A stretch of DNA of 27,098 bases from an uncultured Syntrophales bacterium (lineage in GTDB: Bacteria > Desulfobacterota > Desulfomonilia > Desulfomonilales > Desulfomonilaceae): the NCBI GenBank assembly GCA_964519135.1, contig CAZFJT010000001.1, positions 1-27,098 on the forward strand, in the 5' to 3' direction. Positions 38 to 22,611 of this stretch are shown here, piece by piece. Made by a program: the position numbers and the translations under genes. The stretch's first letter is position 1. Each line of letters begins with the position of its first letter. Below the pieces are notes generated by a model, which worked only from the letters and a program-made list of their open reading frames with translations, had not been told where the DNA came from and did not search any database.

Positions 38-64
38 AGAGAATTACTATAATATTCTATCTTT

Positions 65-2894: not shown

Positions 2895-2920
2895 ATCCAA
2901 TCGCTCCTTTAAGGGCCGAA

Positions 2921-3898: not shown

Positions 3899-3901
3899 AT
3901 T

Positions 3902-4966: not shown

Positions 4967-5141
4967 AAGTATTTCCCTTGGATTAGTATGTTCTCAAGAT
5001 CGGCCGGCTTGGAAATACCCCTGTTTCCGGCCGGTATCAAACACAATATGTACTAAATTATTCATTCTTTGGGGATTTGGTTAGAGAAATATTGCCTTCA
5101 CCAGTTCAATTACATAAACATAAGCCTTATATCCCATCATA

Positions 5142-5858: not shown

Positions 5859-6101
5859 TCATAATTTCTTAATATGTAATTACTCACTGTGGCCCCATTA
5901 GTTTTCGGAATCGAATCCGGGAATTTTGAATGGGCAGATGTGTTTGCGCTTGTTCCGTACGGGCCCAGAACCGTTTCAATAAGAGTAAATTATAATATTT
6001 TTACTGTTTTTCGAAATATAATGTCACTTGAAATCCGGCCAGGGTTGGGCCCTCCCCATGGATATTGTTAATTACCATGAAGAGGGGTGTACGGATGAAG
6101 T

Positions 6102-6269
6102 TTAATTCCCTGGATCGTACGCTGCGGATCCTGAGTCAACGCAGTCTGAAAGCTCTTCAGGGCTGGCGTTCTTGGGGTCTTTCAGTTGACTCATGTGACA
6201 GATGAATTCGTTTCCCTCTCTGTCTTTTACCCATACCAACGGATCAGAAGGTGTTGTTGCTTCAGCCAT
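6102..6269 (-). CDS. Small acidic hypothetical protein, 55 aa (not in ORF track)
   Basis: Translated by hand: MAEATTPSDPLVWVKDREGNEFICHMSQLKDPKNASPEELSDCVDSGSAAYDPGN*. AAAGGAGAT SD upstream of ATG 6269; TAA at 6102-6104. Confidence 0.75.
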   Translation of the reverse strand: MAEATTPSDPLVWVKDREGNEFICHMSQLKDPKNASPEELSDCVDSGSAAYDPGN

Positions 6270-6318
6270 TTTTAAATCTCCTTTTTTTTGCCAAATCTGA
6301 TCATAGGACCAGAGTTCG

Positions 6319-6337
6319 AGCGTAAAAATTTTACGCT
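6319..6337. promoter_or_regulatory. Palindrome, candidate operator
   Basis: AGCGTAAAA-A-TTTTACGCT (9-bp arms, 1-nt centre), 50 bp upstream of the 55-aa ORF. Confidence 0.35.
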
Positions 6338-6625
6338 GTAAAATTACCAGGGGATTCAGTTTTTGAGATCTATTTTCTCTAAGAGTTTATCTCACATGAA
6401 TGGAATATCCCCCCCAATACCAATATAGAGCCCAGGTTCCATATAAAACCGGGATTCCGGACATCTATATTACAAAACATTATAAACACTGGAATTGCAG
6501 AGGTAAGAGTGTGTCAGGAGAATTAATTGACTGATAATTATGTATATTTCAAGAATAACTAGATTTAAAGTCTGTAAAAAAATATGAAAACCTGGTCTGG
6601 AGGCCGGTGGTTCCGTATTTACGGG

Positions 6626-6907
6626 TCAGTATCTTCCCAGGATATGATCAATGAGCGTATTGGACATTTCCATGAAAATGGCCCTGTATCCACCGGGCCA
6701 GGTGTGTCTTATGGGTGGAGGAGGGACATAGCCGTAATAAATTTGTGATTGATCTTTTACTTGAGGTTGAGTTTTGTGTATGGGCGCCCTGGGAGAATAA
6801 TCGGGCGCGGTAGAGCCCGCCCAGGCCGGAGACCAGGAACAAATAAAAATGAAACATAATATAGTGACAATGCTTCTTATTACTGGTATTGTTGTCTTTT
6901 CTCTCAT
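6626..6907 (-). CDS. Secreted hypothetical protein, 93 aa
   Basis: GAGGT SD; basic n-region, hydrophobic h-region and AWA-G signal peptidase site; YYGYVPPPP motif. Confidence 0.7.
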   Translation of the reverse strand: MREKTTIPVIRSIVTILCFIFICSWSPAWAGSTAPDYSPRAPIHKTQPQVKDQSQIYYGYVPPPPIRHTWPGGYRAIFMEMSNTLIDHILGRY

Positions 6908-7219
6908 TTCTACCTCAGCTAGATATTTTATCCACTTTCCAAGATAAAATCAATTAAAATGGTTTCAAGATTTACTAAGGCCGACAAATAGCGCCCGAAA
7001 ACCGCGTGAGTAAAAATCACGCCTTTTGCTTAAACCGCGAGTGGTTTTCGCTCGCGACGACTGTTTATAAGCTTCTGATATTTAAATGAAATAAAGAGAT
7101 GGGCCATATGCATTTAGCCATGGTTGGAAATAACGCATTTTTCAGGCTTGCCATAAAACAGTCCACAGAAATATAATTAATAATATTAGGTTGATACAAT
7201 GCGCAGCAGTCATTATTAG

Positions 7220-7236
7220 TGGGCACGAATATTGCA
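7220..7236 (+). promoter_or_regulatory. Sigma54 (-24/-12) promoter
   Basis: TGGGCACGAATATTGCA matches 16 of 17 positions of YTGGCACGRNNNTTGCW, with GG (7222-3) and GC (7234-5) exactly 10 nt apart. It faces the chemosensory cluster. Confidence 0.7.
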
Positions 7237-7730
7237 GGCGTTCGTCCTTATGCTAGTGCTATATTGAGATAGTCTCTTTTACTTGTACAAATCTTTGAAG
7301 GAGTTATTTTTAATGATGACCGTTAAATGATCATAAACGGTCGCGTGGGGCTTGAAATCTGAATCATACCAACATAACCAGGACTTTTTATCTTGATTTC
7401 CAGTGCTTGGCCATGATATGCTAGATTATCTCTAAAAGTCGTCAAGAGTAAACCACGCGATCATATACGCATGTTGTAGTAATAGAGATCTTGACACGTT
7501 GTAACGATTGTAAAACGGTATCAACAAAGACTTATAAGCCTCCGGAAGTATTTCATAAGTGCGTTAGGATTCCAGATTTGAATACGCCCTGATAAGCGTT
7601 GAATTTAAGTGGTCGGCCCAGCAAGATAAAGTGTTTTTTAAAAAGGCCTATGTATGAATCTTTGAAAAAAGGGCTTTTACTGTAAAAGGATCAATCAAGT
7701 AAACCTTGTCGGGTCCGGCGCGGGGAAGAA

Positions 7731-8069
7731 ATGGAAAAGGCGCCCCAAGAGGAACACAAAACTGAAGATCTATCCGAGGTCATGGACTTTTCCTCCTATG
7801 ATCTCAGGACAACTGTCCGTCTGGTAATTCATAGCGGTGAGTCCAGGCGTGTGGAAATTAGGCAAGGCAGTAAATGGGGCGCGATATATATAAAGGATGG
7901 GGAACTATATCGTGTAGAAACATCCGAATCAACAGGTGACGAGGCCTTCTTTGAGATACTGGGTTGGAAGAGGGCTTCCCATAATGACCGCATGCAAACT
8001 GAAATAATGGATAGAAACGTCAATATTTCAACTGACGTGTTTCTGGATCTTTTAAACAAGAACGCTTAG
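7731..8069 (+). CDS. Stand-alone DUF4388 (PatA-N-like) domain protein
   Basis: Pattern GAIYIKDGELYRVE...GDEAFFEILGW parallels the DUF4388 segment of the next gene (GLIYVNEGGIVHAE...GVEAFYEIVGW). Confidence 0.7.
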   Translation: MEKAPQEEHKTEDLSEVMDFSSYDLRTTVRLVIHSGESRRVEIRQGSKWGAIYIKDGELYRVETSESTGDEAFFEILGWKRASHNDRMQTEIMDRNVNISTDVFLDLLNKNA

Positions 8070-8213
8070 GGACGCGGAGCATTTTGGGGCCATAATACTA
8101 TTATATGTTAAGTTCCCTTGAAAATATTTAGCAGCCTGCTTTTATAGGTCGCAAGACTTATTCTTGCAGGGTCTGGTGATTTATATCTGAACTTATAGCT
8201 CTGGGAGAGTCCT

Positions 8214-10001
8214 TTGCCTGAACGTAGGATTCTAATATTGGAACAAGGCGCCAAGCTTGGTCACACCATAAAAAGCAGGTTGGAGACCAAAGGGGCCGCG
8301 TTTAGCTTTACTGAAGCCAGCTCAGTGGAAGAGGCTGAAGGCATTGTCTTTAACGAAAAAATCCACATGATTGTTGCCAACCACGACCCAAAGCAAGGAT
8401 TAAACGCCATTGATTTGATAAAAAAGATCAGAGCCAAGCAATCCACAACACATACCGTGGTCATTACCGATAAGGAATATGAAGCCGACCGGAGGGAAGC
8501 ATTATCATACGGATGTTCAGCCTATTTAACGCGACCACTGGCTGATGTTAAGCTTGGGGAATTTGTGTACAACACCCTCTCCAGGCACCAGGGATTCAGG
8601 GGCCGCGTTGTGGATATGCGGCTTGAAGATGTCATTCAAATGTTTTGCTACCGAAAGGACAGCACCCTTTTATCTGTAGTGAATGAAGAAGACAAGGGTC
8701 TGATATATGTAAATGAAGGCGGCATAGTGCATGCTGAAACAGGGGATCTTAGAGGGGTTGAGGCTTTTTATGAAATTGTTGGATGGGAGGCTGGAGAATT
8801 TCTTTCCCAAGTAACCCTGGAAGTGCCTACCCAAACGGTTTACATGGATTGGCAAAGCCTACTGATGGAGGGTATGCGTCAAAAGGACGAAATAAGGCAC
8901 GCATTGGGGCCTTACCCACAAGAGCAAGCATCCCCCCGCGCATCGTCAGCGCCAGCCGCGGGTCGAATAAAATCCAAGAAGATAATGGTTGTGGATGATT
9001 CCAGATTCATTAGAAAGATAGTTCAGGAAATACTAGAATCCGATGAGGCTCTTACAGTGGTAGGATACGCTACCAACGGCCAAGAGGCCCTGGAAAAGAT
9101 CGATGAACTCAAGCCGGATCTCATACTGCTTGATTGGGATATGCCGGTTATGAAAGGCTCCACCACACTGATGCACATAATGATAAGAAGCCCCTGTCCA
9201 GTGGTAGTTCTCAGCGGATTCGTCGGAGGAGTGGGCGCGAATCCTTTTGATTTATTGTGCCTCGGCGCGGTGGACTTTTTGAGAAAACCACAGAACAACT
9301 GGAGAAGGGACGGCAGGGCCAATGACCTTGTGCAAAGGGTTAGGGAAGCCTGTGGAATACATTTTGAGAGAATAAGGCGGGTCAGAATACCCTCCCTTCT
9401 ACCAGAAGACGAACGAGGCCGGGTATCAGGCGCCACAAGCCCATTTTTGGCTGTCATGGGCTCATCAATCGGAGGCTGTTCAGATTTGATACGAATAATT
9501 CCTTCATTAAGTCCTGGTTTAAACGCATCCATAGTTGCTCTCCATGACATGCAGGAGCAGGCTATCGGCGCGTTTGTGGATTATCTGAACAGAAGGTCCA
9601 GGACCCCGGTAAAACAGGTTGAATCAGGTGAACGTCTTATTCAGGGTGTCTGTTACATTCATCCGGCCACTATCCCCTTGGAAGCCCAAAGGGAGAATGG
9701 CCACGTCATACTCAAGGTAATAGCGGATATGCCTGAAACCAATGTCATGGATCATTTTCTTATTTCAGCGTCCAAGGTAATGGGACCCTCCATATTGGGA
9801 ATGCTTCTCTCAGGGGGGCCGGAGGAAAGGGGCGCGGATGGGCTAAGGGCCGTAAAGCAAGCCGAGGGCATTACCGCGATACAGGATCCGGATTCCAGCA
9901 TAGACCCAAGAATGGCCTCAAAAGCGGCGCTAACCGGTGTTGTTGATCACACATGGCCCGCTGACCTTGTGGCTAGATCTTTGGAAAAAATAATTGATTA
10001 A
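8214..10001 (+). CDS. Pseudo-receiver / DUF4388 / receiver / CheB-like esterase fusion, probably catalytically dead
   Basis: aa ~1-122: degenerate REC (LEQ, N56, TRP). aa ~127-227: DUF4388. aa ~255-380: intact REC (VVDDS, D307, KP). aa ~410-595: CheB fold (GSSIGG, LHDMQ, LSGGPEERGADG, QDPDSS). TTG start with GGGAG SD. Confidence 0.85.
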   Translation: MPERRILILEQGAKLGHTIKSRLETKGAAFSFTEASSVEEAEGIVFNEKIHMIVANHDPKQGLNAIDLIKKIRAKQSTTHTVVITDKEYEADRREALSYGCSAYLTRPLADVKLGEFVYNTLSRHQGFRGRVVDMRLEDVIQMFCYRKDSTLLSVVNEEDKGLIYVNEGGIVHAETGDLRGVEAFYEIVGWEAGEFLSQVTLEVPTQTVYMDWQSLLMEGMRQKDEIRHALGPYPQEQASPRASSAPAAGRIKSKKIMVVDDSRFIRKIVQEILESDEALTVVGYATNGQEALEKIDELKPDLILLDWDMPVMKGSTTLMHIMIRSPCPVVVLSGFVGGVGANPFDLLCLGAVDFLRKPQNNWRRDGRANDLVQRVREACGIHFERIRRVRIPSLLPEDERGRVSGATSPFLAVMGSSIGGCSDLIRIIPSLSPGLNASIVALHDMQEQAIGAFVDYLNRRSRTPVKQVESGERLIQGVCYIHPATIPLEAQRENGHVILKVIADMPETNVMDHFLISASKVMGPSILGMLLSGGPEERGADGLRAVKQAEGITAIQDPDSSIDPRMASKAALTGVVDHTWPADLVARSLEKIID

Positions 10002-10051
10002 AATGGAGACATCACGGTGGAAAGTCGTCCAAACAAGACAGGAGAGTAACC

Positions 10052-10594
10052 ATGAACGGCAATAATAACCCCCAACTAGGCTCAGGAGATGTTGCTGAAA
10101 TTGCGCAAATGATAAGTTTCTCCATCGGCTCTGAGCAATTCGGCCTAAATATCTTGATGGTTAAGGAAATCATCATGATCCCGGAAATTACGGAGATCCC
10201 GAACTCTCCTGATTTTGTGGAGGGGGTTATTAATCTGCGCGGTGAGATAATGCCTGTTCTGGATCTCAGGAAGAGATTAAGGCTCAGGGGTGTGCAGACC
10301 GAAGCCAAAAGGGGCCCGGGCAACCGTATTCTGGTTGTGGAAATAGAAGGCAACATTACTGGTTTTATAGTGGATTCAGTATCAAAGGTCCTTTCAGTTC
10401 CTATGAACAAGGTATTTCCACCTCCGGACATAATAGTTGGAGGTGTCCAGAGCCAGTACATCAGCGGAGTGGTGCACTTGGACGACAGAATTCTAGTTAT
10501 TCTGGATTTTGGAAAGATTCTTTCCCATGATGAGAAAGATGTGCTGGAAAGGGTTCCCAGACTAGCGCCTGAACAGGTGGGCGGCGCGTTGTAA
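10052..10594 (+). CDS. cheW: Chemotaxis coupling protein CheW
   Basis: ITEIPNSPDFVEGVINLRGEIMPVLDLRKRL; GFIVDSVSKV. Confidence 0.95.
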   Translation: MNGNNNPQLGSGDVAEIAQMISFSIGSEQFGLNILMVKEIIMIPEITEIPNSPDFVEGVINLRGEIMPVLDLRKRLRLRGVQTEAKRGPGNRILVVEIEGNITGFIVDSVSKVLSVPMNKVFPPPDIIVGGVQSQYISGVVHLDDRILVILDFGKILSHDEKDVLERVPRLAPEQVGGAL

Positions 10595-10702
10595 ATATAC
10601 GTAGCAATTATAGTATACAGGTGAATCAGTGAACCAAACAGGAAAACATGCGGTTAGTCCGCTAGCAATCTATACTTTCGACGAATCCCAGGAGGAATGG
10701 CA

Positions 10703-13129
10703 ATGGCGTTCTCATTTAAGAACATCTTCGGAAGAATAGGGTTCGGTAGAACTCTTAGGAACAAGCTCCTTGTAGCTTTTCTCTTACTCTCACTAATCCC
10801 TTTTGGAATCGCCGCTTATATGGCGTACTATTACATCCAGGACGTTGCCGAGAATCAGGCGTACAGTCAGATGCAGCGTATGTCCCAGGACGCTTTGCAC
10901 ACTGCGAACGTTTATATGAACGAACGTGTGGCTGACCAGTTGGTGTGGTCTGAGCTCAGGGTTGTCAAGGAAGCCCTTGATGTTGCAGAGGTAAGGGAGG
11001 ACGCCACTGAAACCCTGAAAGAGCTCGTCAAGTACTATGGTTCCTATGAAGCTATTATGGTGCTCAATAATAAGGGCACGTGCGTTGTGTCGAGCTGGCC
11101 TGGATTCGTTGGTCAGAGCTTCGGTAAAGACCCTCTTTTTAGGGGTCCAACAAAGGGGCAAAACTATGTAAGTGGGTTCCAGGTAGATAAAAGGATCAGG
11201 AAGATCAACCCAAAGGGTCAAGGTTTTACACTTGTCTTCTCAGTTCCCATTAAGATTGGAGGCAAGGTATCAGGTGTTGTGGCCTCCTTCTTTAAATGGT
11301 CGGCCCTTACGGAGATCCTTGACGAATTTAGACTGGGAAAGACCGGCCACGTTGGTGTTATTAATAAAGACTTGAAATATATTTATTATCCTAGAGATAT
11401 CGATCCTGGTCTTCTCTTAAAAACAGTTGGATCTAAAGGCCGTACAGCACTCCGAGACGCCATTAGGAACAAGCAGCACTCTTTTACTTATTCCAGGAAA
11501 GATCCTAAAACGGGGGTTCCAACTACAAGAATCGCTGATATTGAGTACGCGACTACAAAATACAAGAACTTTCCGGCCACAGGATGGTTCGTTTACGCTT
11601 CCGCGGATAGATCTCAGATTCTCTCCGCCCTACCTGGGGTTATTCGAAACCTTGCAATAGTCGCGGCGGTTATTTTGGCCTTGGTTGTTATAGCCACATT
11701 CTTCATCGCTGGAACCATTTCCCGGCCAATCACAGGTTTGGCCAATGTTATGGCCCAGGTTGACGAAAACTTGGATCTTACAATCAGGGCGCCTGTGACC
11801 ACACAGGATGAAACCGGTCAGACAGCCGAGACGTTCAACCGTCTTCTGGAGAACTTCCAGAATTCATTTACGTCGGTTCTTGATGCGGTTGTCAGGGTCC
11901 GGGAGTCTTCTTCTGAGGTTAATGAGGTTACCCAAAGGATCGTTGTTAACGCGACAGCCCAGTCAGAGCGTGCAAGGAACGTGCTCGACAGGGTCGGCGC
12001 GATGGGTGAAACAGCCCAGGAGGTCTCTTCAAACGCTCAGGAGACCCAGAGAGCAGCGTCCGACACGGATGAACGCATGAGGATAACCACCTCTAATATT
12101 GAAAGTGTCGCTGAAAGGTCAAGGGTCCAGCTTGAGCATTCCACTGAAACAGCAAATATTATCGATCAAATGGGTGAAACAGCCAGGGCGGTTGCTGAAA
12201 GGGCCAATGACCAGGCCGAGGCCGCCCGTGTTACAACTGAAGCCGTTTCCCGTATTGCCCAGGAAATTCAGGAAGTGGCCAGAGGCGCGGATGAAGCGAA
12301 TCAGCAATCGGCTCTCACCGACCGTTTTGCCCGTGAGGGTGGAGAGGCCGTCGACCAGGTGGTTGGCGGTATGAGGAGTATCGCTGAAGCGTCTGAACAG
12401 ATCAACGAAATCATGGACGTTATTTCGTCAATTGCCGAGCAAACGAACTTGCTGGCCTTGAACGCAGCTATTGAGGCGGCAAGGGCCGGTGAACACGGTA
12501 AAGGTTTTGCGGTTGTTGCGGACGAAGTTAGAAAGCTCGCTGAGAGAACCGCTGAATCAACCAACGAGATTGGAGAGCTCATTCGAGAAAGTAACCGACG
12601 TGTTGAGGAAGGAGAACGACTGTCCGCGATGAGCCGTGACGCTCTTACCCAAATTCAGGACGGTGTTGTGAAGACCAATGAGCTCATCTCCAGTATTACC
12701 GAGGGAACGGTCAGGCAAACCCAGGAAATTGGCGATGTGCAGAGGGCCATGGACAGGATGACACAGCTTGCCCAGGAAATTCTCAAGCTTACGGATGAGC
12801 AGGCCAGCAGAAGGGTCCAGGCCGCTGAATCTATGACCACGGTGCGTGAGGAGGCCATGACGGTTACCCAATCCGCTGAACAAGAGGTTGTTACAGCGGC
12901 GGCGGTTGCCGAATCCATGATCGGGGTTACAGAGCGAGCCGAAAATATCGCTAAACTCACTGGATTGCAGACTGAGCGTTCAGCGATTCTCAGACAGATT
13001 ATGGCTGAAATGTCCGAAACAGCGGCCGCTAACGCAGAGGGCGCAGCAGGGGCTTCTGATACTACATTGAAACTTGCTAATGTTGCTGAAGAGCTCGCCC
13101 AGCTCGTTGAGCAATTCAAAATTCAGTAG
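10703..13129 (+). CDS. Methyl-accepting chemotaxis-family receptor: TM-dCache-like-TM-HAMP-extended signalling domain
   Basis: Two TM helices and HAMP ([13 protein letters not shown]); tip [44 protein letters not shown] is 7 nt before ATG 10703. Residue numbers elsewhere count from the track start 10697. Confidence 0.95.
12002..12184 (+). repeat. Exact 15-bp repeat within the MCP, 168 nt (8 heptads) apart
   Basis: ATGGGTGAAACAGCC at 12002-12016 and 12170-12184 (MGETA twice). Confidence 0.85.
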
Positions 13130-13186
13130 CGCGCTTTTGTTTAATTGGAGCTCTGGAGTGCGCATATCAGGGTAATGAGGTGAACA

Positions 13187-13546
13187 ATGGGCGTGAGGGT
13201 CCTAGTGGTTGATGATTCTGGTTTTATGAGGAAACGGGTTTGTGAGCAACTTGAAGCTCAAGGTCACTCCGTGATCGGAGAGGCCAAGGGTGGAAATGAA
13301 GCTGTTGAAATGTTCAAGACGCTCAAACCCGACCTTATAACCATGGATATTACCATGCGTGATAAAGATGGAATCACAGCGGCAAAAGAGATTATGGAAT
13401 TGGATCCTCAGGCCAAAATCCTTTTTCTGACCATACTCAAGGATGAGAAATATAAAGCCGAAGCAAAAGATATAGGCGCCATCGGTTTTTTGAACAAAAC
13501 CGATCAGAACTCTATTGCAGAGGTTCTTAAGGGTTTAGACATATAG
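13187..13546 (+). CDS. cheY: Single-domain response regulator, CheY-like
   Basis: VVDDSGFMR, PDLITMD(54)ITM, FLT and LNK; GAGGTG SD; lies in a che cluster. Confidence 0.88.
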   Translation: MGVRVLVVDDSGFMRKRVCEQLEAQGHSVIGEAKGGNEAVEMFKTLKPDLITMDITMRDKDGITAAKEIMELDPQAKILFLTILKDEKYKAEAKDIGAIGFLNKTDQNSIAEVLKGLDI

Positions 13547-13780
13547 TTACACGACTGCTTCAGGGAGGCGAATCATTACTGAAAAGGGCTGCGCGGTCAA
13601 TGTGAGAAGGATTTGAATGGACAGAAGTGTACGCGCGCTGCTTGACGCTAAATGAACAGCAATCTTTATACGCCGGGTCAATCTGAATTTACAAGTTACT
13701 TGGCGCGCATAACCGAGAAGGACAGGGCGGACAATTAGCTCTAACAAAGGCCCAACAAAAAGGTTCAACTAGGACTGATA

Positions 13781-14542
13781 ATGGCCCCAAATCAAAGCGC
13801 CACTAGGGATGTAAGAGGTTCAAACGCTTTGTCTTCGAACAGGAGAGAAGGGAGCGCCAATGGACGCGCCTCAGTCTTGTTCCAAAAATCCTGGGCGCAT
13901 AAGTTAATTCCGATTGCATTGGCTCTTGCGGCAATAGTGGCCATCGGAATCACAACAAAGGTGGTCTGGGACCTTAACTTGAAGGGTCAGGCGTACCGAG
14001 GTATTTCGGCCTCCAAATCAGTTGAGCCGGGAACAAACACAGAACACATAGTAGCAGCGCCCATAGTAAATGGAATAGGAGTATACCAAAAAGCATTGGG
14101 GTCTTTTAGGCGAGGCCTGTATCTGATAATGGCCACAATCGCGATATCTTTTATAAGTATTCTGGCGCTCTTTATAAGCAAATTCGTTGTTCCCTTGAAC
14201 ACCATATCTAATGTGGTCCGGACAATGGCCGACGGAGATCTTACAATATCCGCGCCTGAAAAACTGCCTGATGACATGAGGTCTTTAGGCAAAGGATTGA
14301 ATGATTTGGCGGCCAACTTTCAGGAAGTCTTGCTTTTTACCGGAACCATGTGTGGAAACTTAAAATCTGAACTGGCTGCGCTGGAAGCTGATTTGTCAAG
14401 TGAAAACAGCACACTTGACCCGGAACAAATAAAAGCCGAGATTGCCGGACTTAGATCTGAGATAGAAATACTCTCTGAAATGGTTGAACAGTTCAAATAT
14501 TATCAGGTGGAATTTGATGGCAGTGAAGTTAAACCCAAATGA
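13781..14542 (+). CDS. Two-TM HAMP protein, MCP-like but without the signalling hairpin
   Basis: TM1, short loop, TM2, HAMP (PLNTISNVVRTMADGDLT...DDMRSLGKGLNDL), short coiled coil ending LSEMVEQFK like the MCP's LAQLVEQFK. Confidence 0.8.
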   Translation: MAPNQSATRDVRGSNALSSNRREGSANGRASVLFQKSWAHKLIPIALALAAIVAIGITTKVVWDLNLKGQAYRGISASKSVEPGTNTEHIVAAPIVNGIGVYQKALGSFRRGLYLIMATIAISFISILALFISKFVVPLNTISNVVRTMADGDLTISAPEKLPDDMRSLGKGLNDLAANFQEVLLFTGTMCGNLKSELAALEADLSSENSTLDPEQIKAEIAGLRSEIEILSEMVEQFKYYQVEFDGSEVKPK

Positions 14543-14688
14543 AATGCGCATTCTCCATGGACGGCTATCTGGTATTCATTGAGGCCGCGCCAATAATATC
14601 GTAAGGACGTTTCTGCCTTGGCATAAGATTCTCTGAGTCTTTAGGATTAAGGTCCATATGAAAAAGTCCCATTTAAGGGGAATTAAAG

Positions 14689-17600
14689 ATGATAGACATC
14701 GAACTCCTGGAAGATTACACCACTGAGGCGCGAGAAGTTTTAGACGACCTGGACGCCAACCTCATTCGTTTAGAGCAGGAGGGCGCCACCCAGGAAACCC
14801 TCAATAATGTTTTTCGGGCGGCCCACTCAATAAAAGGCTCGGCAGAGTACATCGGACTGGATCGTTCCAGCGCCCTGACCCATGGTGTTGAAACATTACT
14901 GGATCTATTACGGGAAGGAATGTTGGAAGTTACTCAGGAAGTGGTGGAATTCCTTTTTAAGGCCAAAGACTGTATATCCGCTCTGGTGGACGAGGTAGCA
15001 AGAGATCACGAGGAAAAAACAGATATATCCGGTCTTTTATCAGAGCTTGAAATACTGGTAAGCAAGTCTGATAAATCATCAGAAGTTTCGGAGATTACGG
15101 CGATAATAGAAGAGGCTGTGCAGGAGCGGCCAGAACCGGCTGAACAGGATCTCATTGAAGGACATGATGAAGAGCTGGAAACCCAAGGGCCGCAGGAAGA
15201 AGATCTCGAAGCGGACTTCATGCAACCTGAGGCTTTTTTCTCTGAATCGGACCGAGAGGAACTCGGAACTGCTCTCAATCAAATAGTAGAGTCTGATAGG
15301 GAATCCGAGCCGGATCAGTCTGCGATTCCAGCCACAGAAGACCTGGTTGAAAGACCTTATCCGGAAGATGATGATGAAACACCAACCGGGGAATTGGACG
15401 CAGGGACCACACTGGAAGAGACGGTTCCTCACCTGCTCAATCTATCATTGTACCTGGATGATCTGGCCGATGGCATCGCCATAGAGGAAGCGCTAACCTC
15501 CTTTTCTGAAACCGTTTCAAGATTGACCAGATCAATGGAGTTCCTGCAGATCCCTGAGGCTGTTACCATATTGGAATCATTGGAAGCTTCGGTAAATTCA
15601 TTGGATCTGGTTGATCAAAAGGTCAGTGATGATGAAATATCACGTTTGAGATTGCAATTACATGATCTTAGACCCTGCTATCCAGCGGATATATTTCCAT
15701 GGCCCGAATCTGAGGATGAACACACCCAGGAGGAGCCCACCGAGGACTTTGTAAAAAGGGATTTCTACTTACAATTGGAAAGTATCAAAGGTCTTGATCC
15801 GGGATTCTACGATAACCTGTACGACGCGGGTTTCACTTCTATTGCACAGTTGGCGGGCTCGTCCTTCAGTTCACTCTCTAACCTCCCGGGCATGACGGAT
15901 CAAGCCGCTGAAGCGATAATCTCCGCGCTCAAACCTGAACCTGTTCCAAAGAAGAAGGTCCCCGCCCGCGCGCCTGCCGCTCCTAAATCCATGCTCGCTG
16001 ATGTGGATGATGATCTTTTGAGCGAATTTGAGGGTATGTTTCAAGATGTGGAATCAGCTAAGGGTCAGGGCAAGTCCATTGGGGAATTGGACCCATCAGA
16101 TGAGCTGTTTGTTGATATCCAGGCTATTGGAGAAGATACGGACAAGGAAATAATGGAGATCTTCCTATCATATGGATGGGAAATAGTAGATAAGATCCAT
16201 GCAATTGTGGACAAGGTGAAAAAAGGCAAGACCGAGCAGAGCGACCTGCTGGCCTGCGCGGACCTGGTGAAATCGATTAAATCCTCTTCCACTTATATGG
16301 ATTTTCAGAATCTTGCCCTATTCCTGGACGATTGGTACGAACGATCCCTTTGGGCGGCTGAAAGGGTTGAATCGTTAACTGAAGAAGAGCTTAATTTCAT
16401 CCCAAAGGTATTTGATCGTTTTGAGAAATTTCTCCATGCTTTAGAAGGGGCCATGAAGCCTGAGACCAAAGCCCCAATTAAACAGAAGCCCCCAGAGCCT
16501 GCGCCGCGCCCAACAAAGGAAGCCCGGAAGACCAGACCTGAAGAACCAATGCGCAAGCAAGCCGAATACGAGCCTATCCAGGAAACAACCAAGCACCCAA
16601 AGGCGCCTGAAATCGAAGAGGCGCCGCCCCAGGCCGACGCTGCTGCAACCAAGCCCAAGGCGCCCATGACGGAAACATTTGAAGTGGAGATGGTTTCAGA
16701 TAAGACGTCCACTGCAAAGGCGGAAGCTCCCGGCGGGCCTGTTGGTCAATTTGAAGGAGACGTTTCCCTTACAAGGGATTCCTCTGCTGAAAGTCCTGTT
16801 GTCAGGACTATGCGTGTGGATTCTTCAAAGGTTGATTTACTCCTGAACCAGGTAGGAGAACTAGTTGTTAACAGGTCATATGTGGAGCAGTTGTCCAATG
16901 AGCTCAAGCTATTCCAAAGGGAAATTGCCGCAGCCACAAAAGTGGGTAAAGATGAGTCTGTGGCGATTCGTGACATCACCACAAAGTTGGGAGAAGCCGC
17001 GTTGTCCCTTGGTCGTGTGGCGACGGACATACAAGAAGGGGTTATGAAATTGAGGATGTTGCCGGTGGGGCAACTCTTCAACAGAATGCCCAGACTGATT
17101 CGCGATCTTTCCAGACGAATGGGCAAGAATATCTCGTTACATGTCATGGGTGGAGACACCGAGGTGGATAAACGGGTAATAGAGCAGGTTTATAATCCTC
17201 TGGTCCATTTGATACGCAACGCGGTGGATCACGGAATAGAAGACAAGGAATCCAGGCTCAAACTCGGTAAAAAAGAAGAGGGTAATATAACGCTCAACGC
17301 CTACTCCCAAGGCAACCACGTGGTTATTGACGTTGAGGATGATGGTGGTGGGATAAACACCAAAGCTGTTCTTAACAGGGCCGTGGAGAACAGGCTTTTG
17401 GACGCGGGCGAGGCCAAGCGACTAAGCCCGGAAGAAACGTACAACTTCCTATTCGTTCCAGGATTCTCGACAAGTAACAAGGTTACGAGAACATCCGGCA
17501 GGGGAGTGGGAATGGATGTTGTAAAAAAGGACGTGGAGAAGATAAGCGGACATGTTGAGGTACAGTCAAGAGAGAACCAAGGAACAAAAGTCTCCATAAA

Positions 17601-18102
17601 GATCCCCCTGACCCTTGCCATTATTCAAGCCCTCCTGGTTAGGTCCGGCAAGCACTGCTTTGCCATACCTTTGACCTCAGTGAGGGAAATCGTTCAGATC
17701 ATGCCCCATGAAATAACCACCATAGAGGGCTTTGAGGTGATCAGGTTCCGTGAAGACACAGTGCCGATACTCAGACTTGGGGATATTTTCAACATTGATG
17801 TGGATCCAAGGTTGGAGAATGAAGGATTCCTGATTTTGGCCAGCGCGGGTCTTAAGACCATCGGATTCCTTGTACAAGGCCTTATTGGTGAACAGGACGT
17901 GGTGATAAAGCCTTTGGCGGAGCATGTGTTCAAAAGCAGAGGGTTGGCTGGATCCACTATTCTTGGTGACGGCACAATAGCCCTTGTGATGGACGTGGCC
18001 GAAATAGTGGATGACGTAATAGCCTCTAAGCGAAGGATGATAGCCATGCAATCCAATGGGTATAACCAATCTATCCTTGATGAGGGAAGGCCGGAAGCCT
18101 GA
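14689..18102 (+). CDS. cheA: Chemotaxis histidine kinase CheA, 1137 aa, with expanded N-terminal half
   Basis: P1 FRAAH(46)SIKG; P3 RVDSSKVDLLLNQVGELVV; P4 HLIRNAVDHGIE, DDGGG, FVPGFST, SGRGVGMDVV; C-terminal P5/CheW domain. Confidence 0.96.
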   Translation: MIDIELLEDYTTEAREVLDDLDANLIRLEQEGATQETLNNVFRAAHSIKGSAEYIGLDRSSALTHGVETLLDLLREGMLEVTQEVVEFLFKAKDCISALVDEVARDHEEKTDISGLLSELEILVSKSDKSSEVSEITAIIEEAVQERPEPAEQDLIEGHDEELETQGPQEEDLEADFMQPEAFFSESDREELGTALNQIVESDRESEPDQSAIPATEDLVERPYPEDDDETPTGELDAGTTLEETVPHLLNLSLYLDDLADGIAIEEALTSFSETVSRLTRSMEFLQIPEAVTILESLEASVNSLDLVDQKVSDDEISRLRLQLHDLRPCYPADIFPWPESEDEHTQEEPTEDFVKRDFYLQLESIKGLDPGFYDNLYDAGFTSIAQLAGSSFSSLSNLPGMTDQAAEAIISALKPEPVPKKKVPARAPAAPKSMLADVDDDLLSEFEGMFQDVESAKGQGKSIGELDPSDELFVDIQAIGEDTDKEIMEIFLSYGWEIVDKIHAIVDKVKKGKTEQSDLLACADLVKSIKSSSTYMDFQNLALFLDDWYERSLWAAERVESLTEEELNFIPKVFDRFEKFLHALEGAMKPETKAPIKQKPPEPAPRPTKEARKTRPEEPMRKQAEYEPIQETTKHPKAPEIEEAPPQADAAATKPKAPMTETFEVEMVSDKTSTAKAEAPGGPVGQFEGDVSLTRDSSAESPVVRTMRVDSSKVDLLLNQVGELVVNRSYVEQLSNELKLFQREIAAATKVGKDESVAIRDITTKLGEAALSLGRVATDIQEGVMKLRMLPVGQLFNRMPRLIRDLSRRMGKNISLHVMGGDTEVDKRVIEQVYNPLVHLIRNAVDHGIEDKESRLKLGKKEEGNITLNAYSQGNHVVIDVEDDGGGINTKAVLNRAVENRLLDAGEAKRLSPEETYNFLFVPGFSTSNKVTRTSGRGVGMDVVKKDVEKISGHVEVQSRENQGTKVSIKIPLTLAIIQALLVRSGKHCFAIPLTSVREIVQIMPHEITTIEGFEVIRFREDTVPILRLGDIFNIDVDPRLENEGFLILASAGLKTIGFLVQGLIGEQDVVIKPLAEHVFKSRGLAGSTILGDGTIALVMDVAEIVDDVIASKRRMIAMQSNGYNQSILDEGRPEA

Positions 18103-18226
18103 AAAGACGCTATATGTTTAATGGGGAGCTGACTTTTAAACCGGTTTGTACCATAACCACAGCCAGTTATACTCTTGATATTATTAGGCGACAATAAGGG
18201 CAAAACCGGCAAGGAGTAGTCAATAC

Positions 18227-19000
18227 ATGGGCCAGCTTGTAGCAATAATCAGCCAAAAAGGGGGGGTTGGGAAGACTTCAACTGCCGTAAATCTTGGCGC
18301 GTGCCTCTCGGCGCTAAAAAGACGGGTTTTACTGGTTGGTATGGATCCTCAATGTGGCCTGGCGCAAAGCTTTGGGCTGGAGATTTCTTCCGATTCCGAT
18401 GGCATGTTCAGCGCGATTAAAGGGAATGCGCGCATGGATCATATCATTCATCAGACGAATCCTAGATTACCAAGATTGGATATGGCGGCGTGCAATATCT
18501 CATCCGCGGCTCAGGAGATAGAGTATTTAAACATACTTCAGGCGAATCCATCAATGCTGGCCGAGCTTCTCAATGATATGCGGCCACACTATGATTATAT
18601 CTTCATAGATTGCCCCCCAAGATTGGACAGTCCGACTCAGTCTGCGTTGATAGCCGCTGACTCCTATTTGGTTCCCGTCCAATGCGAATACGCCTCAGTA
18701 GGCACAGTGGGAGCGGTGTTGAGATCAGCGCTGGAAGTGAAAAGACTAAAAAATCCCGGACTCGGCATTTTCGGATTTCTGATCACAATGGCTGACAAAA
18801 GGGCCTCTTTTACATACGGCGTCATTAAGGAGATAAGGCAATATCTTAAGGAAAGGGTTTTTAAAACAATTATTCCCCGCGATCCTAAATTGGCTGAGGT
18901 CCCTGTTAGGCAATCTCCCATAATTGCTTACGACAAGAATGCTGTCGGCGCCAGGGCCTACATACAATTGGCGCGGGAAATCCTCAGTAAATCTAGTTAA
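18227..19000 (+). CDS. ParA/Soj-family ATPase within the chemosensory cluster
   Basis: Deviant Walker A KGGVGKT, MDPQ, Walker B YDYIFIDCPP, VPVQCE and IIPR. Confidence 0.92.
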   Translation: MGQLVAIISQKGGVGKTSTAVNLGACLSALKRRVLLVGMDPQCGLAQSFGLEISSDSDGMFSAIKGNARMDHIIHQTNPRLPRLDMAACNISSAAQEIEYLNILQANPSMLAELLNDMRPHYDYIFIDCPPRLDSPTQSALIAADSYLVPVQCEYASVGTVGAVLRSALEVKRLKNPGLGIFGFLITMADKRASFTYGVIKEIRQYLKERVFKTIIPRDPKLAEVPVRQSPIIAYDKNAVGARAYIQLAREILSKSS

Positions 19001-19184
19001 TGGTCAGTTGTTGAGACCCTGTGATTCAATAGAACACCAGCTTTCTTTGGGCCATATTTTTTAAATCACTAAAGCGCTCACTGGTGTGCGGAGAAATGGA
19101 TATCAAAGCATGGTTTAATACTTAGCCAATTTACGCAATTAATACCGCACGATCGCCAGGGGGTTGGCGCCGGGGATAGACTAA

Positions 19185-20249
19185 ATGGATGATATTTCAA
19201 ACAATAAACGGGTTCGAGTTCTTGTGGTGGACGATTCCGCTCTCATGCGTAAGCAGATAAGCTCGATTTTGGAATCAGACTCTCAATTGAGTGTTGTGGG
19301 GGACGCAAAAGATGGTGAAGACGCTTTGGCCAAGATTGGGGAACTCAAACCTGATGTTGTTACATTAGATGTTGAAATGCCCCGCATGAACGGCATAACC
19401 GCCTTGAAACACATAATGTTGAAGCACGCCATTCCCACGGTAATGATTAGCGCTCTAACAAGCGAGGGATCAAAGACCACTTTTGACGCTTTGAGATACG
19501 GAGCGGTCGAGGTTATCTCAAAACCCTCCAGGCGAGATACCGATAGTTTGGAAGCCCAGAGTAAGGACATAATTTCCAAGGTAAAAAGGGCGGCCGTAAT
19601 AAGAACCGGAAGGCTTAAGTATGTTAGAGTCGCTGGGGACGAGGCTATGAAGTCCGCTGAAAACATGACGCCCGCTGATAATGATACTGCGGTAGTGGGA
19701 ATGGTTACCGGAACAGGCGGTTATTATACTCTGTTAAGAATCATTCCGGCCTTGGCCCCTGATTTCAGTGGAGTCATAGTTGCTGTGATGAATATAAGAT
19801 CCAAATATGTAGAGCCATTTATCACATATTTGCAAGCCCATAGCAGGGCGCCTGTCCAGACGGTGAAAGGCATGGCCTCTCCAAAACAAGGTTGCTGCTA
19901 TGTATGCGCGTCAGAGGATCTGCCGGTAATTGAGAAATCCAATGACAGCGCCCTAAGAATAAGGCTGGAAGGGCCATCGGATCACCCTTTAAACCCAGGC
20001 CCATTGGATCGTTTTTTAATGTCCCTGTCTTTTGCATTGGTTGAAAAATCTGTTGGAATAATCTTAACAGGCGCTGGAAAGGACGGAGCTGAAGGACTCG
20101 CCAGCATTCGTCACGCTGGAGGAATCGCGGCGATACAGGATATCAACAACTGCGCGGACCCATCCATGCCGTTGGCCTGCCTTGAAAAGGGCACAGTGGA
20201 CAGGATAATACCTGATTATGAATTGGCTGATTTCATTAATAGCGTTTAG
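19185..20249 (+). CDS. cheB: CheB-like response regulator (REC + esterase fold) lacking the catalytic Ser and His
   Basis: REC: VVDDSALMR, D62 (LDVEMP), SKP. Esterase fold: VTGTGG, VMNIR, ILTGAGKDGAEG. Confidence 0.88.
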   Translation: MDDISNNKRVRVLVVDDSALMRKQISSILESDSQLSVVGDAKDGEDALAKIGELKPDVVTLDVEMPRMNGITALKHIMLKHAIPTVMISALTSEGSKTTFDALRYGAVEVISKPSRRDTDSLEAQSKDIISKVKRAAVIRTGRLKYVRVAGDEAMKSAENMTPADNDTAVVGMVTGTGGYYTLLRIIPALAPDFSGVIVAVMNIRSKYVEPFITYLQAHSRAPVQTVKGMASPKQGCCYVCASEDLPVIEKSNDSALRIRLEGPSDHPLNPGPLDRFLMSLSFALVEKSVGIILTGAGKDGAEGLASIRHAGGIAAIQDINNCADPSMPLACLEKGTVDRIIPDYELADFINSV

Positions 20250-20271
20250 AGCATTAAGGACACTTCTTTGA

Positions 20272-20562
20272 ATGAATTTAGAACTGAACCCGGCTCAAGC
20301 TGAAGAATCCTACGCAAAAATATTAGACATACTTGATCGTAATAACCTTCTGGCTGAAAGATTGCCTTATACAAAAGGATTATTCGAGGAAGCCTTGTTT
20401 TTCTGTTACAAGATGCGATTGATAACCCAGGGTGATGTTAAGAAAATGCTCGGGTTGGACAGACAAGGTCTGAAAATACTAATAAATGAATGGAATAGCG
20501 GCGACGAAGGAAACTGCTCGTGCAGGCTGGCCAGAAATCCCTTTGCTGATGAAATTGAATGA
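20272..20562 (+). CDS. Hypothetical protein, 96 aa, possible HTH and C-terminal CxC
   Basis: 22 nt after cheB with an AAGGA SD; ITQGDVKKMLGLDRQGL resembles an HTH; NCSCR near the C-terminus. Confidence 0.7.
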   Translation: MNLELNPAQAEESYAKILDILDRNNLLAERLPYTKGLFEEALFFCYKMRLITQGDVKKMLGLDRQGLKILINEWNSGDEGNCSCRLARNPFADEIE

Positions 20563-20581
20563 AAGTGTGTGACCAATTTTT

Positions 20582-21322
20582 CTATTGTTTTATAGAGTAA
20601 GGGAATTCAAGGCCTGGATTATGTTTCCCATGAATTTTCTTAATCTTTTTTATGTCATCTTTGAAGGCGCCCCATTCCTTATTGATCCAAACAGCTTTTG
20701 ATTGAAAAATTTCCGCCATGGTTTCCATCATTACCGTTAAATTTACGAAAACAGGTCTTATTACAGTATCTTCCGTGAAATAGACCAGAACAGGCGCTGC
20801 ATTTTGCTCTTTGCTTTCACAATCCACAAAATAGTATTCATCCTGGAATTGAAACACAGGGAACCATGCTTTGCGCCAGCCTGAAAGTAATCTTGTATCC
20901 ACTAAGGTTTTATACTCTGAGATGGCGCGATCAAGCGTCAAAAAATCATGGTACCAAATAAATGGAACATTGGAGGCCGGGTCGCATCCATTGTAAAGGT
21001 TGTACAAATCTATCAGCTCCTTTGGCGGGCGTAGCCCCAGACCAAGGAACTTCTCTTTTATCAAGCTTTCACTGAGACCCGGTTGAAGGGATTTTGCCAC
21101 TTCCGGCGCATTATTGTCATGCCATTGTTTGATCAGGACAATGGACTCCGACAATCTTTTAGTATCATACGCGTTATCAGCGGCTACCATAAGCGTCTTA
21201 TCAGCGCCGGGCCATTTTATCATGCGCTCTTTTTTGCAACCTTGCGAGGTGATACAAATCGCCCCAATCACTAAAAATAGCGGGAATAAATCTAAACCGA
21301 TCCTATGGGAAAATGATCTCAA
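20582..21322 (-). CDS. SMI1/KNR4 (SUKH) family protein with putative lipoprotein signal
   Basis: LQPGLSESLI...LGLRPPKELIDLYNLYNG and WFPV...YYFVDC patterns; hydrophobic stretch followed by TSQG-C. Confidence 0.75.
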   Translation of the reverse strand: MRSFSHRIGLDLFPLFLVIGAICITSQGCKKERMIKWPGADKTLMVAADNAYDTKRLSESIVLIKQWHDNNAPEVAKSLQPGLSESLIKEKFLGLGLRPPKELIDLYNLYNGCDPASNVPFIWYHDFLTLDRAISEYKTLVDTRLLSGWRKAWFPVFQFQDEYYFVDCESKEQNAAPVLVYFTEDTVIRPVFVNLTVMMETMAEIFQSKAVWINKEWGAFKDDIKKIKKIHGKHNPGLEFPYSIKQ

Positions 21323-21350
21323 TCTGATCCATTAACCAATGACAATAGAT

Positions 21351-21659
21351 CTAAACACTGCAAGCGCATGAGTGGTCTTGCTCTGGCGCCCCTATTTCCT
21401 CCACCAATTCTAAAGTCGCGCCACTTTTTCTAACAAGATCCGCGCTCTCCAATTGATCGAGCAAAATATCGCATTCTTCCCGGGATTTGGATAGATACAC
21501 AGGCAGTAGCTCCTGAACTCGATCCAGGTCATCGGCCAGTTTTAGGGAGTATAGGTTCACAAGCACTTGGAGGTGCAGAAAATCCAGGCCTGCAGAGGAT
21601 ATTTTTTCATTGATTACCTGATCTGTCATCACCAGTTGGCTTACACCATCAGAACACAT
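21351..21659 (-). CDS. Hypothetical protein, 102 aa, winged-helix-like with Cys/His termini
   Basis: AGGAG SD; LLDQLESADLVRK resembles a wHTH; begins MCSDG and ends DHSCACSV. Confidence 0.75.
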   Translation of the reverse strand: MCSDGVSQLVMTDQVINEKISSAGLDFLHLQVLVNLYSLKLADDLDRVQELLPVYLSKSREECDILLDQLESADLVRKSGATLELVEEIGAPEQDHSCACSV

Positions 21660-21732
21660 GATATTCTCCTATGACGCCGCGATGGTCGCAATAAACTTTT
21701 GGAATAACGATAGGGGAACTATTGAGTCTCCT

Positions 21733-22611
21733 CTATAATACTTTGTTCAAATCATATTCTATTATACCAGTGGCCCCGGCTTTTAAAAGTTTTGGTATGA
21801 GGGACCGGACCACCTCTTCTGAGACCACTGACTCCACTGAAAATGAATCTGATTTATAATGTCCGGCCACAGTCGGCGCCTCGAGTGAAGGTAGCAAGCC
21901 TACCACTATGTCCAGTTTATCCTTTGCCACATTCATCTTCAGGCCAACCATCTTTCTGGCTTCCAAGGCCGCTTGTAGAAGCAAATGGATCTGATCGATC
22001 TTTTCCTTTTTAAAAGGATCTTTATAAGATTGATGGTTTGAGATGAACTGGGTGTTGGTTGTGAGCAGTGTATGAATGATCTTGAGTCCATTTGCCCGCA
22101 ATGTGCTACCTGTTTCAGTAACATCCACAATTGCGTCAACAACGCCTTCTTTTACCTTGGCTTCTGTGCTGCCCCAGGAAAACTCTACCTCTATGGGTAT
22201 GTTTCTTTCTGAGAAAAACTCCTTTGTAACGCGCGTCAGCTCAGTGGCTATTCTCTTGCCTGCCAGATCTTCAGGTTTTTCATATCCGGACTCTCCATCA
22301 ACGGCAAGAACCCACCTGGCGGGATGCTGGGATACCTTTGAATACACGAGATCATCTATGACTTTCACGTCAGAGCCGTTCTCCATTATCCAATCCTTGC
22401 CGGTCAGCCCCGCGTCAAAAAGTCCTGATTCAACATACCTGGAGATCTCCTGGGCCCTGAGTCTTGCCAAAACCAGCTCTTCATCATCCACAGTGGGAAA
22501 GTAACTCCTGGGTGATATGTTAATGTTCCAGCCGGCCCTGGCGAACAGATCAACTGTGGCCTGTTCCAGGCTTCCCTTTGGTATTATAAGCTTTAAGGGT
22601 TCCCTATTCAT
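21733..22611 (-). CDS. hisG: ATP phosphoribosyltransferase, long form
   Basis: [40 protein letters not shown]; C-terminal regulatory domain (LPSLEAPTV). Confidence 0.96.

Follow-up and report, generated by a model that had tools for sequence, protein, structure and literature searches.

The window examined here, a stretch of 27,098 nucleotides (nt) from contig CAZFJT010000001.1, carries at positions 7731-20562 a plus-strand chemosensory gene cluster in which two proteins resembling the receptor methylesterase CheB, referred to as CheB1 and CheB2, have each kept a phosphorylatable receiver (REC) domain and lost part of the catalytic triad. Sequence comparison supports the view that the CheB-like domains are conserved triad-less modules kept under purifying selection and are not decaying genes. 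We lean toward reading the cluster as a vertically inherited chemosensory pathway of the Desulfomonilaceae in which receptor methylation probably plays no part. The excitation core is complete, consisting of a dCache chemoreceptor (methyl-accepting chemotaxis protein, MCP), CheW, CheA, and CheY. On this point the Pfam and NCBIfam assignments agree with an earlier reading of the same DNA made from the sequence alone (the original prediction), including the presence of His46 of CheA, which lies in the motif AAHSIKG of the Hpt domain.

CheB1 and CheB2 each combine the CheB_methylest fold with a receiver located N-terminal to it, the Pfam model (PF01339) scoring 97.8 bits for CheB1 and 105.8 bits for CheB2 compared with 200 bits for canonical CheB. 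On the NCBIfam CheB model (NF001965, cut-off 293 bits) both fall below threshold, at 196.4 and 246.1 bits, respectively. The triad positions (Ser164, His190, and Asp286 in Salmonella numbering) were located by alignment to the structure 1A2O, taken from HMMER output and repeated with MAFFT. In CheB2, Ser164 is replaced by Gly176 and His190 by Met202/Asn203, with Asp286 retained as Asp300. In CheB1, Ser418 and His444 are retained and Arg539 occupies the position of Asp286. The broken triads of the original prediction thus stand to the extent that both are incomplete, but CheB1 of the window has lost only the Asp. Being short of at least one triad residue each, the two proteins do not qualify by sequence as catalytically competent CheBs, the label "protein-glutamate methylesterase CheB" that the source databases attach to all of these proteins notwithstanding.

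The substitutions are not peculiar to the window. The Ser164 position of CheB2 is Gly in 119 of 120 ortholog clusters and Ala in one, never Ser; the His190 position is hydrophobic in all 120, never His; and Asp286 is retained in 102. The Gly-rich loops lining the old active-site cleft (GxGTGG, TGxGxDG, and SMP) remain conserved, whereas the catalytic side chains have been lost. Among the 109 CheB1 ortholog clusters, the His is found in every one, inside an almost invariant HDM motif, the Ser in 83 (with Phe, Ala, or Gly in the other 26), and an Asp at the Asp286 position in just two, this position being hypervariable with 17 different residues. Each family also has invariant motifs of its own, GTGGYY and DPSMP in CheB2 and HDMQ, D424, R427, and H483 in CheB1. 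As the window copy of CheB1 retains Ser and His, its non-catalytic reading rests on the orthologs, namely on the loss of Ser in 26/109 and on the hypervariable Asp position. Judged by these alignments, the window CheBs are conserved pseudoenzymes, with a Ser-His dyad surviving at most in some members of the CheB1 clade.

The receivers, read as intact in the original prediction, do retain their phospho-acceptor sites, both in CheB1 (central REC) and in CheB2. In the former, D261, D262, D307, S334, and K358 are invariant across 53 sequences; in the latter, D17, D62, S89, and K113 are invariant across 57 sequences, with D16 present in 53 of the 57. CheB1 also has an N-terminal receiver, but this one is degenerate, its phospho-Asp site being Asn in the window and Asp in just 28/53 sequences. 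Ratios of nonsynonymous to synonymous substitution (dN/dS; pairwise Nei-Gojobori estimates between moderately diverged loci) are 0.10-0.22 for the C-terminal domain of CheB2 and 0.055-0.21 for that of CheB1, a range comparable to MCP, CheA, and ParA; the RECs give 0.01-0.2, CheW 0.04-0.07, and the membrane HAMP protein 0.2-0.5. The AlphaFold2 model of CheB2 (mean predicted local distance difference test score, pLDDT, 83.8) matches full-length 1A2O in Foldseek with a template modeling (TM) score of 0.84, and its C-terminal domain matches the catalytic domain of Thermotoga maritima CheB (3SFT) with a target-normalized TM score of 0.90. From these matches, the closed packing of REC against C-terminal domain that gates CheB is predicted to persist. 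The model of CheB1 (pLDDT 84.9) has four folded domains and a disordered linker at residues 227-251.

A genome scan based on CheA recovered 23 Desulfomonilaceae loci (L001-L023) from metagenome-assembled genomes (MAGs), 18 complete and five cut by contig ends. The complete loci share the order PATAN, CheB1, CheW, MCP, CheY, HAMP protein, CheA, ParA, and CheB2, and the same cluster is present in the cultured type strain Desulfomonile tiedjei DSM 6799 (CP003360.1, 5,552,864-5,574,684). Protein identity to the window is approximately 45-75% across the Desulfomonilaceae loci. In 18 loci an ortholog of the small PATAN protein (52-64% identity) is found at the corresponding place, and D. tiedjei has one too. 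ParA adjoins CheA in all loci. The membrane HAMP protein, at 23-37% identity, is likewise positionally conserved in all of them and has a counterpart in two distant loci, L032 and L035. With the same substitutions in more than 100 ortholog clusters, synteny at about 50% identity, and low dN/dS (0.06-0.22 for the C-terminal domains), the CheB-like genes are judged to encode conserved pseudoenzymes and not to be decaying, and the part of the earlier proposal that sees the CheB folds as retained non-catalytic, or at least triad-less, modules is borne out by these data and by the predicted fold. Frameshifts interrupt genes of the cluster in L002, L003, L008, L013, L015, L018, L021, L022, and L023, mostly MFD assemblies; as the neighboring genes stay conserved, these splits look like assembly errors, not pseudogenes.

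Neither a CheR nor a CheD match to Pfam was obtained in any open reading frame (ORF) of the window, and a six-frame tblastn search of the window with a genuine CheR (from L024, Pfam CheR 198 bits) was negative. A hidden cheR or cheD was rejected given gaps of at most 234 nt, flanking ORFs that are all housekeeping genes, and the negative tblastn result, so the claim that neither gene is present and that there is no room for one holds. The tblastn and phmmer probes for CheR were likewise negative in L001-L023 and L033, reaching about 10 kb around cheA. As a control we used 80 CheB loci from a metagenome scan with patterns in the receiver, mostly ordinary CheBs, 77 of which have the full triad. 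Here cheR is present in 22 of 27 loci of at least 15 kb, compared with 0 of 21 loci of the Desulfomonilaceae type (Fisher p = 3e-9, a value that overstates independence, the Desulfomonilaceae loci being a single lineage).

The receptor offers little that resembles a methylation site. An ungapped alignment of the MCP with Tsr covers 204 residues (Tsr number = MCP number - 208) and places D505, V512, R519, E701, and A710 at Tsr Q297, E304, Q311, E493, and E502, respectively. The original claim that the receptor lacks Glu/Gln at these positions is therefore correct for D505, V512, R519, and A710 and incorrect for E701, which remains Glu. The published consensus ([ASTG]2-x2-[EQ]2-x2-[ASTG]2) has no match in the window MCP and 13 orthologs; the same pattern finds four matches (four of five sites) in Tsr as a control and 0.31 per sequence in shuffled cytoplasmic domains. 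The pair equivalent to Tsr E303/E304 varies among orthologs (QQ, QE, QA, QT, RE, RD, RV) and, from this variation, looks like an unconstrained relic. The tip of the hairpin is at E599, each arm spans about 30 heptads, and the MCP has no C-terminal pentapeptide. A second strongly conserved coiled-coil patch was observed at residues 411-445 and 753-773 (window 11927-12031 and 12953-13015), some 23-27 heptads from the tip and paired across the hairpin, with Q-x-E-R-[AS] on both arms; its identity among 14 orthologs is 0.83-0.98, and the zone equivalent to the methylation helices of Tsr is less conserved.

Triad-less CheB-like domains extend well beyond this family. An exhaustive comparison of the CheB2 C-terminal domain with 1.84 billion representative proteins gave four clusters below E 1e-30, and among the best 150 matches roughly a third to two-fifths are without the His and often without the Ser ([AS]EGGY...LY...DDG types). 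Many triad-less proteins are PATAN fusions, with the architectures REC-PATAN-REC-CheB-like, PATAN-REC-CheB-like, and REC-CheB-like-PATAN, and PATAN stands directly N-terminal to a receiver in CheB1 and in proteins P0132, P0161, P0169, P0195, and P0210. The CheB1 gene thus directly encodes a link to a PatA-type output, as it is a PATAN-REC module with an appended CheB-like domain; the original prediction had named such a link, and its recurrence as fusions in distant lineages agrees with it. The gene neighborhoods of triad-less proteins are similar to that in the window. Locus L032 has the order REC-PATAN-REC-CheB-like, CheW, dCache MCP, CheW, MCP, CheY, HAMP protein, and CheA, and is resembled by L035 (MCP, CheW, CheY, HAMP protein). 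Locus L027 encodes cNMP-PATAN, three CheB-like proteins, CheW, CheY, a CheA of 1541 residues with two Hpt matches and a faint FimL_C match, and ParA, while L026 has a cluster of REC, triad-less REC-CheB-like, MCP, and CheW.

Several further occurrences were seen alongside these clusters. An orphan REC-CheB-like protein of 481 residues with Gly/Leu/Asp at the triad positions is encoded at L028 10001-11446 (D. tiedjei MAG JACRDG010000089.1), next to a PAS hybrid histidine kinase and away from che genes, in a MAG that also carries the main cluster (L016). L031 is an orphan REC-CheB-like-PATAN gene, and P0198 (710 residues) is a fusion of Ser/Thr protein kinase, REC, and CheB-like domain with Gly at the Ser position and "QY" replacing "QH". 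About 5 kb upstream of the che cluster of L026, at 4363-5449, are genes for an MglA/MglB-like pair, namely a small Ras/Arf-like GTPase and a Roadblock/LC7 protein. The stretch between this pair and the cluster encodes a histidine kinase and a sigma-54 activator, and the same kinase-activator pair is found upstream in L027.

Two outlying loci bear on how the losses are related. L030 consists of two adjacent chemosensory clusters in one MAG (1-5452 and 10001-22001). The first (CheB-HEAT-CheR-CheY-CheA) lies 7.5 kb upstream of a PATAN-type cluster that comprises ParA, PilZ, two CheBs (one with an intact triad, the other without), and another PATAN-REC-CheB-like gene. In this outgroup of the same architecture, the intact-triad REC-CheB (L030_399) stands beside ParA, and the MCP has a consensus methylation site and Glu/Gln at all five Tsr positions. 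A rough neighbor-joining tree lacking support values places L030_399 among canonical CheBs and CheB2 inside an older triad-less clade, so the loss in CheB2 would not be recent. A recent co-loss of the CheB2 triad with cheR and the sites, with L030_399 as the intact ortholog, was therefore set aside, and by its sequence L030 is a useful contrast rather than an orthologous ancestral state. In L029 the order is REC, REC-CheB-like, REC-PATAN-REC-CheB-like, REC, and then a partial cheR at the contig end (12230-12592, tblastn E 2e-7). Both CheB-like genes of this locus are without the catalytic His, which indicates that triad loss is not always paired with cheR loss and contradicts a universal coupling of the two. 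The proposed co-occurrence of triad loss, cheR absence, and site loss thus fits the Desulfomonilaceae (24 loci for cheR, 14 MCPs for the sites), with L030 as the contrast, and fails as a general rule in L029.

Taken as a signaling pathway, the cluster could operate as follows. Phosphorylated CheA (CheA~P) would phosphorylate three receivers, those of CheY, the central REC of CheB1, and CheB2. CheB1 would in essence be a PatA-type (PATAN-REC) response regulator, whose phosphorylation may release PATAN onto a downstream machine, as in the cyanobacterial Tax/Pix systems, the most likely targets being the type IV pilus (T4P) motor or cell-polarity components. CheY would act as an antagonistic or sink regulator. 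The CheB-derived domains would no longer hydrolyze methyl esters and may serve instead as phosphorylation-gated binding modules that dock the regulators on the receptor array, for which MCP patch 411-445 opposite 753-773 is a candidate surface. Such docking could supply non-covalent feedback on receptor state, and ParA may position the array. D. tiedjei is described as non-motile, which, if so, makes a flagellar output unlikely. A bolder extension, which we hold to be possible but rather unlikely, is that old and widespread CheB-derived pseudoenzymes, often fused to PATAN and present in several Desulfobacterota-like lineages, replace methylation by phosphorylation-gated non-covalent binding to receptors, tethering a PatA-type output and feeding back. 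If a dead esterase does sit on the receptor bundle in this way, chemosensory arrays would have a further principle of adaptation and output, and a new one.

A number of points weigh against a methylation-free pathway of this kind. The Desulfomonilaceae loci are one lineage and not phylogenetically independent, and counts taken over them overstate statistical support. Both Ser and His are retained by CheB1 in the window and in 76% of orthologs, a dyad that, on the sequence, could give residual hydrolase activity. The negative result for cheR covers only about 10 kb around each locus, and in L030 a cheR-containing cluster adjoins a PATAN-type cluster. The E701-Q702 pair at the Tsr E493 equivalent is conserved, in the non-consensus context LTDEQASRR, and methylation sites of non-enteric receptors may depart from the consensus. 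With regard to output, the PATAN target for CheB1 is extrapolated from cyanobacteria, genes for type IV pili or polarity are missing from the 10-kb flanks of the cluster in the window and in D. tiedjei, and docking of the CheB-like domains on the receptor is a step that we purely infer.

Some of these points speak for the first alternative, that methylation persists and only CheB2 is a pseudoenzyme. Here CheB1 would be a weak esterase or deamidase working through the Ser418-His444 dyad, possibly with the neighboring and invariant Asp445 as a relocated acid, and a CheR encoded elsewhere would methylate non-consensus sites such as E701. The near-invariant HDM motif with its universal His, the Ser of 83/109 ortholog clusters, the conserved E701-Q702, the neighboring clusters of L030, and the partial cheR that follows triad-less CheB-like genes in L029 are all compatible with it. 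However, 24% of CheB1 orthologs, well conserved in other respects, have Phe, Ala, or Gly for the Ser, 17 different residues occur at the Asp286 position, the NCBIfam score of CheB1 (196 bits) stays below the cut-off of 293, a cheR is missing within 10 kb in all 24 loci, and consensus sites number zero in 14 MCPs, leaving this alternative unlikely.

It is also improbable that the CheB-like domains have acquired a function unrelated to receptors, be it binding of a small molecule or protein (PATAN partners, ParA) or a new catalysis on the invariant residues of CheB1. Invariant residues foreign to canonical CheB fit such a change, as do the non-chemotaxis contexts of L028 (hybrid histidine kinase), L031 (orphan), and P0198 (Ser/Thr kinase fusion). 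In contrast, the CheB-like domain always stands beside MCP, CheW, or CheA in the Desulfomonilaceae and in L026, L027, L030, L032, L034, and L035, and the sequence names no ligand or partner.

Competition among several receivers for CheA~P is familiar from Sinorhizobium and Rhodobacter, among others, and the CheB homologs might accordingly be mere phosphate sinks or competitors whose C-terminal domains are structural ballast devoid of a binding function. The invariant receiver residues and the REC dN/dS of 0.01-0.2 would suit this role. The C-terminal domains, however, are themselves under purifying selection (dN/dS 0.06-0.22) and retain the family-specific motifs (GTGGYY and DPSMP in CheB2; HDMQ, D424, R427, and H483 in CheB1), and triad-less CheB-like domains persist across many architectures and lineages, making this explanation quite improbable. 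Simple decay of the window cluster, with CheB genes turning into pseudogenes, has nothing beyond the broken triads and sub-threshold NCBIfam scores to speak for it and is ruled out by intact reading frames, identical substitutions in more than 100 ortholog clusters, synteny at about 50% identity that includes the cultured type strain, and dN/dS well below 1.

Read as a pathway that probably dispenses with receptor methylation, the window cluster would, by analogy, work most like the cyanobacterial Tax/Pix systems of the T4P class. In these systems (PixJ-PixI-PixL with the PatA-type PixG and CheY-type PixH), a PATAN-REC regulator and a CheY likewise accompany MCP, CheW, and CheA, CheR and, on this reading, methylation-based adaptation are likewise missing, and PATAN is the output domain (PMC11181946; bioRxiv 10.1101/2021.06.11.447907). 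CheR and CheB are absent from the cyanobacterial T4P-class systems, PATAN binds PilB1 and PilC (known for Synechocystis only), and phosphorylation of the attached receiver governs the localization of the PATAN regulator (bioRxiv 10.1101/2021.06.11.447907; PMC11181946). The T4P class typically pairs a PATAN-type regulator with a single-domain CheY (PMC11181946). The window core has two CheY-like regulators of this sort, CheY (13187-13546) and the PATAN-REC part of CheB1, a resemblance to the Wuichet-Zhulin T4P (Tfp) class that is not proof of membership. Unlike its Tax/Pix counterparts, the PATAN-REC protein of the window has an extra degenerate receiver at the N-terminus and a CheB-derived domain at the C-terminus; the cluster adds a second REC-CheB-like protein, ParA, the membrane HAMP protein, and a stand-alone PATAN; the receptor is a dCache chemoreceptor instead of a photoreceptor; CheA has no REC fused to it; and the host is a sulfate-reducing, dehalogenating deltaproteobacterium.

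Other systems share individual features. Canonical CheB (Salmonella 1A2O; T. maritima 3SFT) has the REC and alpha/beta C-terminal domain, predicted fold, receiver residues, Gly-rich nucleophile-elbow loop, and DG loop in common with the window proteins, which differ from it in being only 25-28% identical, in their incomplete triads, and in having no partner CheR. The Pil-Chp system of Pseudomonas aeruginosa (PilG/PilH, ChpA, ChpB, PilK) likewise has two antagonistic regulators and a CheA with extra Hpt-like modules, but its CheB (ChpB) is active, it has a CheR (PilK) and the methyl-accepting PilJ, and neither PATAN nor a cluster ParA is part of it. The Che system of Helicobacter pylori and the Dif system of Myxococcus xanthus also have no CheR in the cluster, any adaptation being achieved by other means; these are without any CheB homolog, whereas the window retains two as pseudoenzymes. 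A ParA/MinD ATPase stands beside cheA and cheW in the cases of Vibrio ParC and Rhodobacter sphaeroides PpfA as well, presumably positioning or segregating arrays. In the window, by contrast, no ParP-like partner was recognized, and the receptor is transmembrane while the PpfA-dependent cluster is cytoplasmic. By its predicted gene content, the window differs from every system found in having two disarmed CheBs, one of them fused to a PatA-type module, together with ParA and the membrane HAMP protein.

CheR and CheB have been treated as part of the core of essentially all chemosensory systems, anchoring their evolutionary classification (bioRxiv 10.1101/2022.05.07.491037). No published description of a triad-less CheB or a PATAN-CheB fusion was found in the literature searched. 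To our knowledge, methylation-free systems are known only as ones without the genes. Here the esterase would instead have been kept, disarmed, and held long under purifying selection, in one case fused to PATAN. If this is true, CheB joins the signaling enzymes with conserved pseudoenzyme descendants, automatic annotation as CheB methylesterase is wrong for these proteins, and a testable handle is gained on adaptation in arrays that do without methylation and on the coupling of PATAN regulators to arrays outside cyanobacteria. The presence of the cluster in cultured D. tiedjei DSM 6799 means that the proteins can be made and tested.

Ten plus-strand ORFs, all with intact reading frames, fill the cluster with gaps of 22-234 nt between genes (Table 1). 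Of the additional features named in the original prediction, the two DUF4388 domains, the tip-less receptor, ParA, and HHH_5 in CheA are recovered with Pfam. The tip-less receptor, here termed the membrane HAMP protein, has two hydrophobic segments, HAMP, and a C-terminal helical tail and is without an MCP signaling domain. ParA has the AAA_31/CbiA fold and a deviant Walker A motif, KGGVGKT, within SQKGGVGKTS at residues 9-18.

Table 1. Features of the chemosensory cluster, in window coordinates (aa, amino acids).
Feature	Size or residues	Position (nt)	Strand	Assignment
Small stand-alone PATAN (DUF4388/PatA_N) protein	112 aa	7731-8069	+	Pfam PF14332, 26 bits (cut-off 25)
CheB1, four domains	595 aa	8214-10001	+	Pfam Response_reg (two), DUF4388, CheB_methylest
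CheB1 domain 1, degenerate N-terminal receiver	aa 1-122	8214-8579	+	
CheB1 domain 2, PATAN	aa 130-227	8601-8894	+	DUF4388, 61 bits
CheB1 domain 3, phosphorylatable REC	aa 255-380	8976-9353	+	Pfam match at aa 257-361
CheB1 domain 4, CheB-like	aa 412-595	9447-9998	+	Ser418, His444, Arg539 at triad positions
CheW coupling protein	180 aa	10052-10594	+	Pfam CheW, 127 bits
Transmembrane chemoreceptor (MCP), dCache_1-HAMP-MCPsignal	810 aa	10697-13129	+	Pfam
Single-domain CheY	119 aa	13187-13546	+	Pfam Response_reg, 83 bits; best NCBIfam match CheY_Halo
Membrane HAMP protein ("tip-less receptor")	253 aa	13781-14542	+	Pfam, HAMP only
CheA (Hpt, acidic linker, HHH_5, P3, P4, P5)	1137 aa	14689-18102	+	Pfam, NCBIfam
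ParA/MinD-type ATPase	257 aa	18227-19000	+	Pfam AAA_31 (132 bits), CbiA
CheB2, REC and CheB-like domain	354 aa	19185-20249	+	Pfam, NCBIfam
ORF without assigned function	96 aa	20272-20562	+	No Pfam or NCBIfam match

The linker of CheA includes HHH_5 at residues 362-415 (window 15772-15933), and no P2 domain was detected in the protein. The HHH_5 region is poorly conserved (0.25-0.37) and has a faint counterpart in CheA of D. tiedjei. HHH_5 is normally a non-specific DNA-binding module, and its occurrence by sequence match in CheA, together with ParA, raises the idea of nucleoid contact. The pseudo-Hpt insertion proposed originally is only weakly supported, residues 485-570 matching the Hpt region in hhalign with E 0.0018 and a probability of 15% and with Lys replacing His; a second Hpt was rejected, this being weak profile similarity alone.

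The cluster is flanked by genes on the opposite strand, with a 2-oxoacid dehydrogenase operon and lipoate ligase upstream and a SUKH protein, hisG/hisI, and an extracytoplasmic function (ECF) sigma/anti-sigma pair with thioredoxin and thioredoxin reductase downstream. Membership of the 96-residue ORF at the downstream end of the cluster is doubtful, its only ortholog among the Desulfomonilaceae loci compared being in L006. This ORF and a minus-strand ORF of 102 residues at 21351-21659 each have C-x-C near the C-terminus and match no family; kinship between the two was considered and is not detectable (BLASTP E 0.036). Rfam gave zero matches in the window. Upstream of the cluster, a 1.9-kb region of about 41% GC (5859-7730) has no convincing gene. 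It contains a sigma-70-like TTGCCA-18-TATAAT (11/12) at 7148-7177 and a sigma-54-like GGGCAC-N5-TTGCA at 7221-7236, both of a kind that shuffled sequence yields at least as often. Its single ORF, at 6626-6907 on the minus strand, would encode a Pro-rich protein of 93 residues with a hydrophobic N-terminus.

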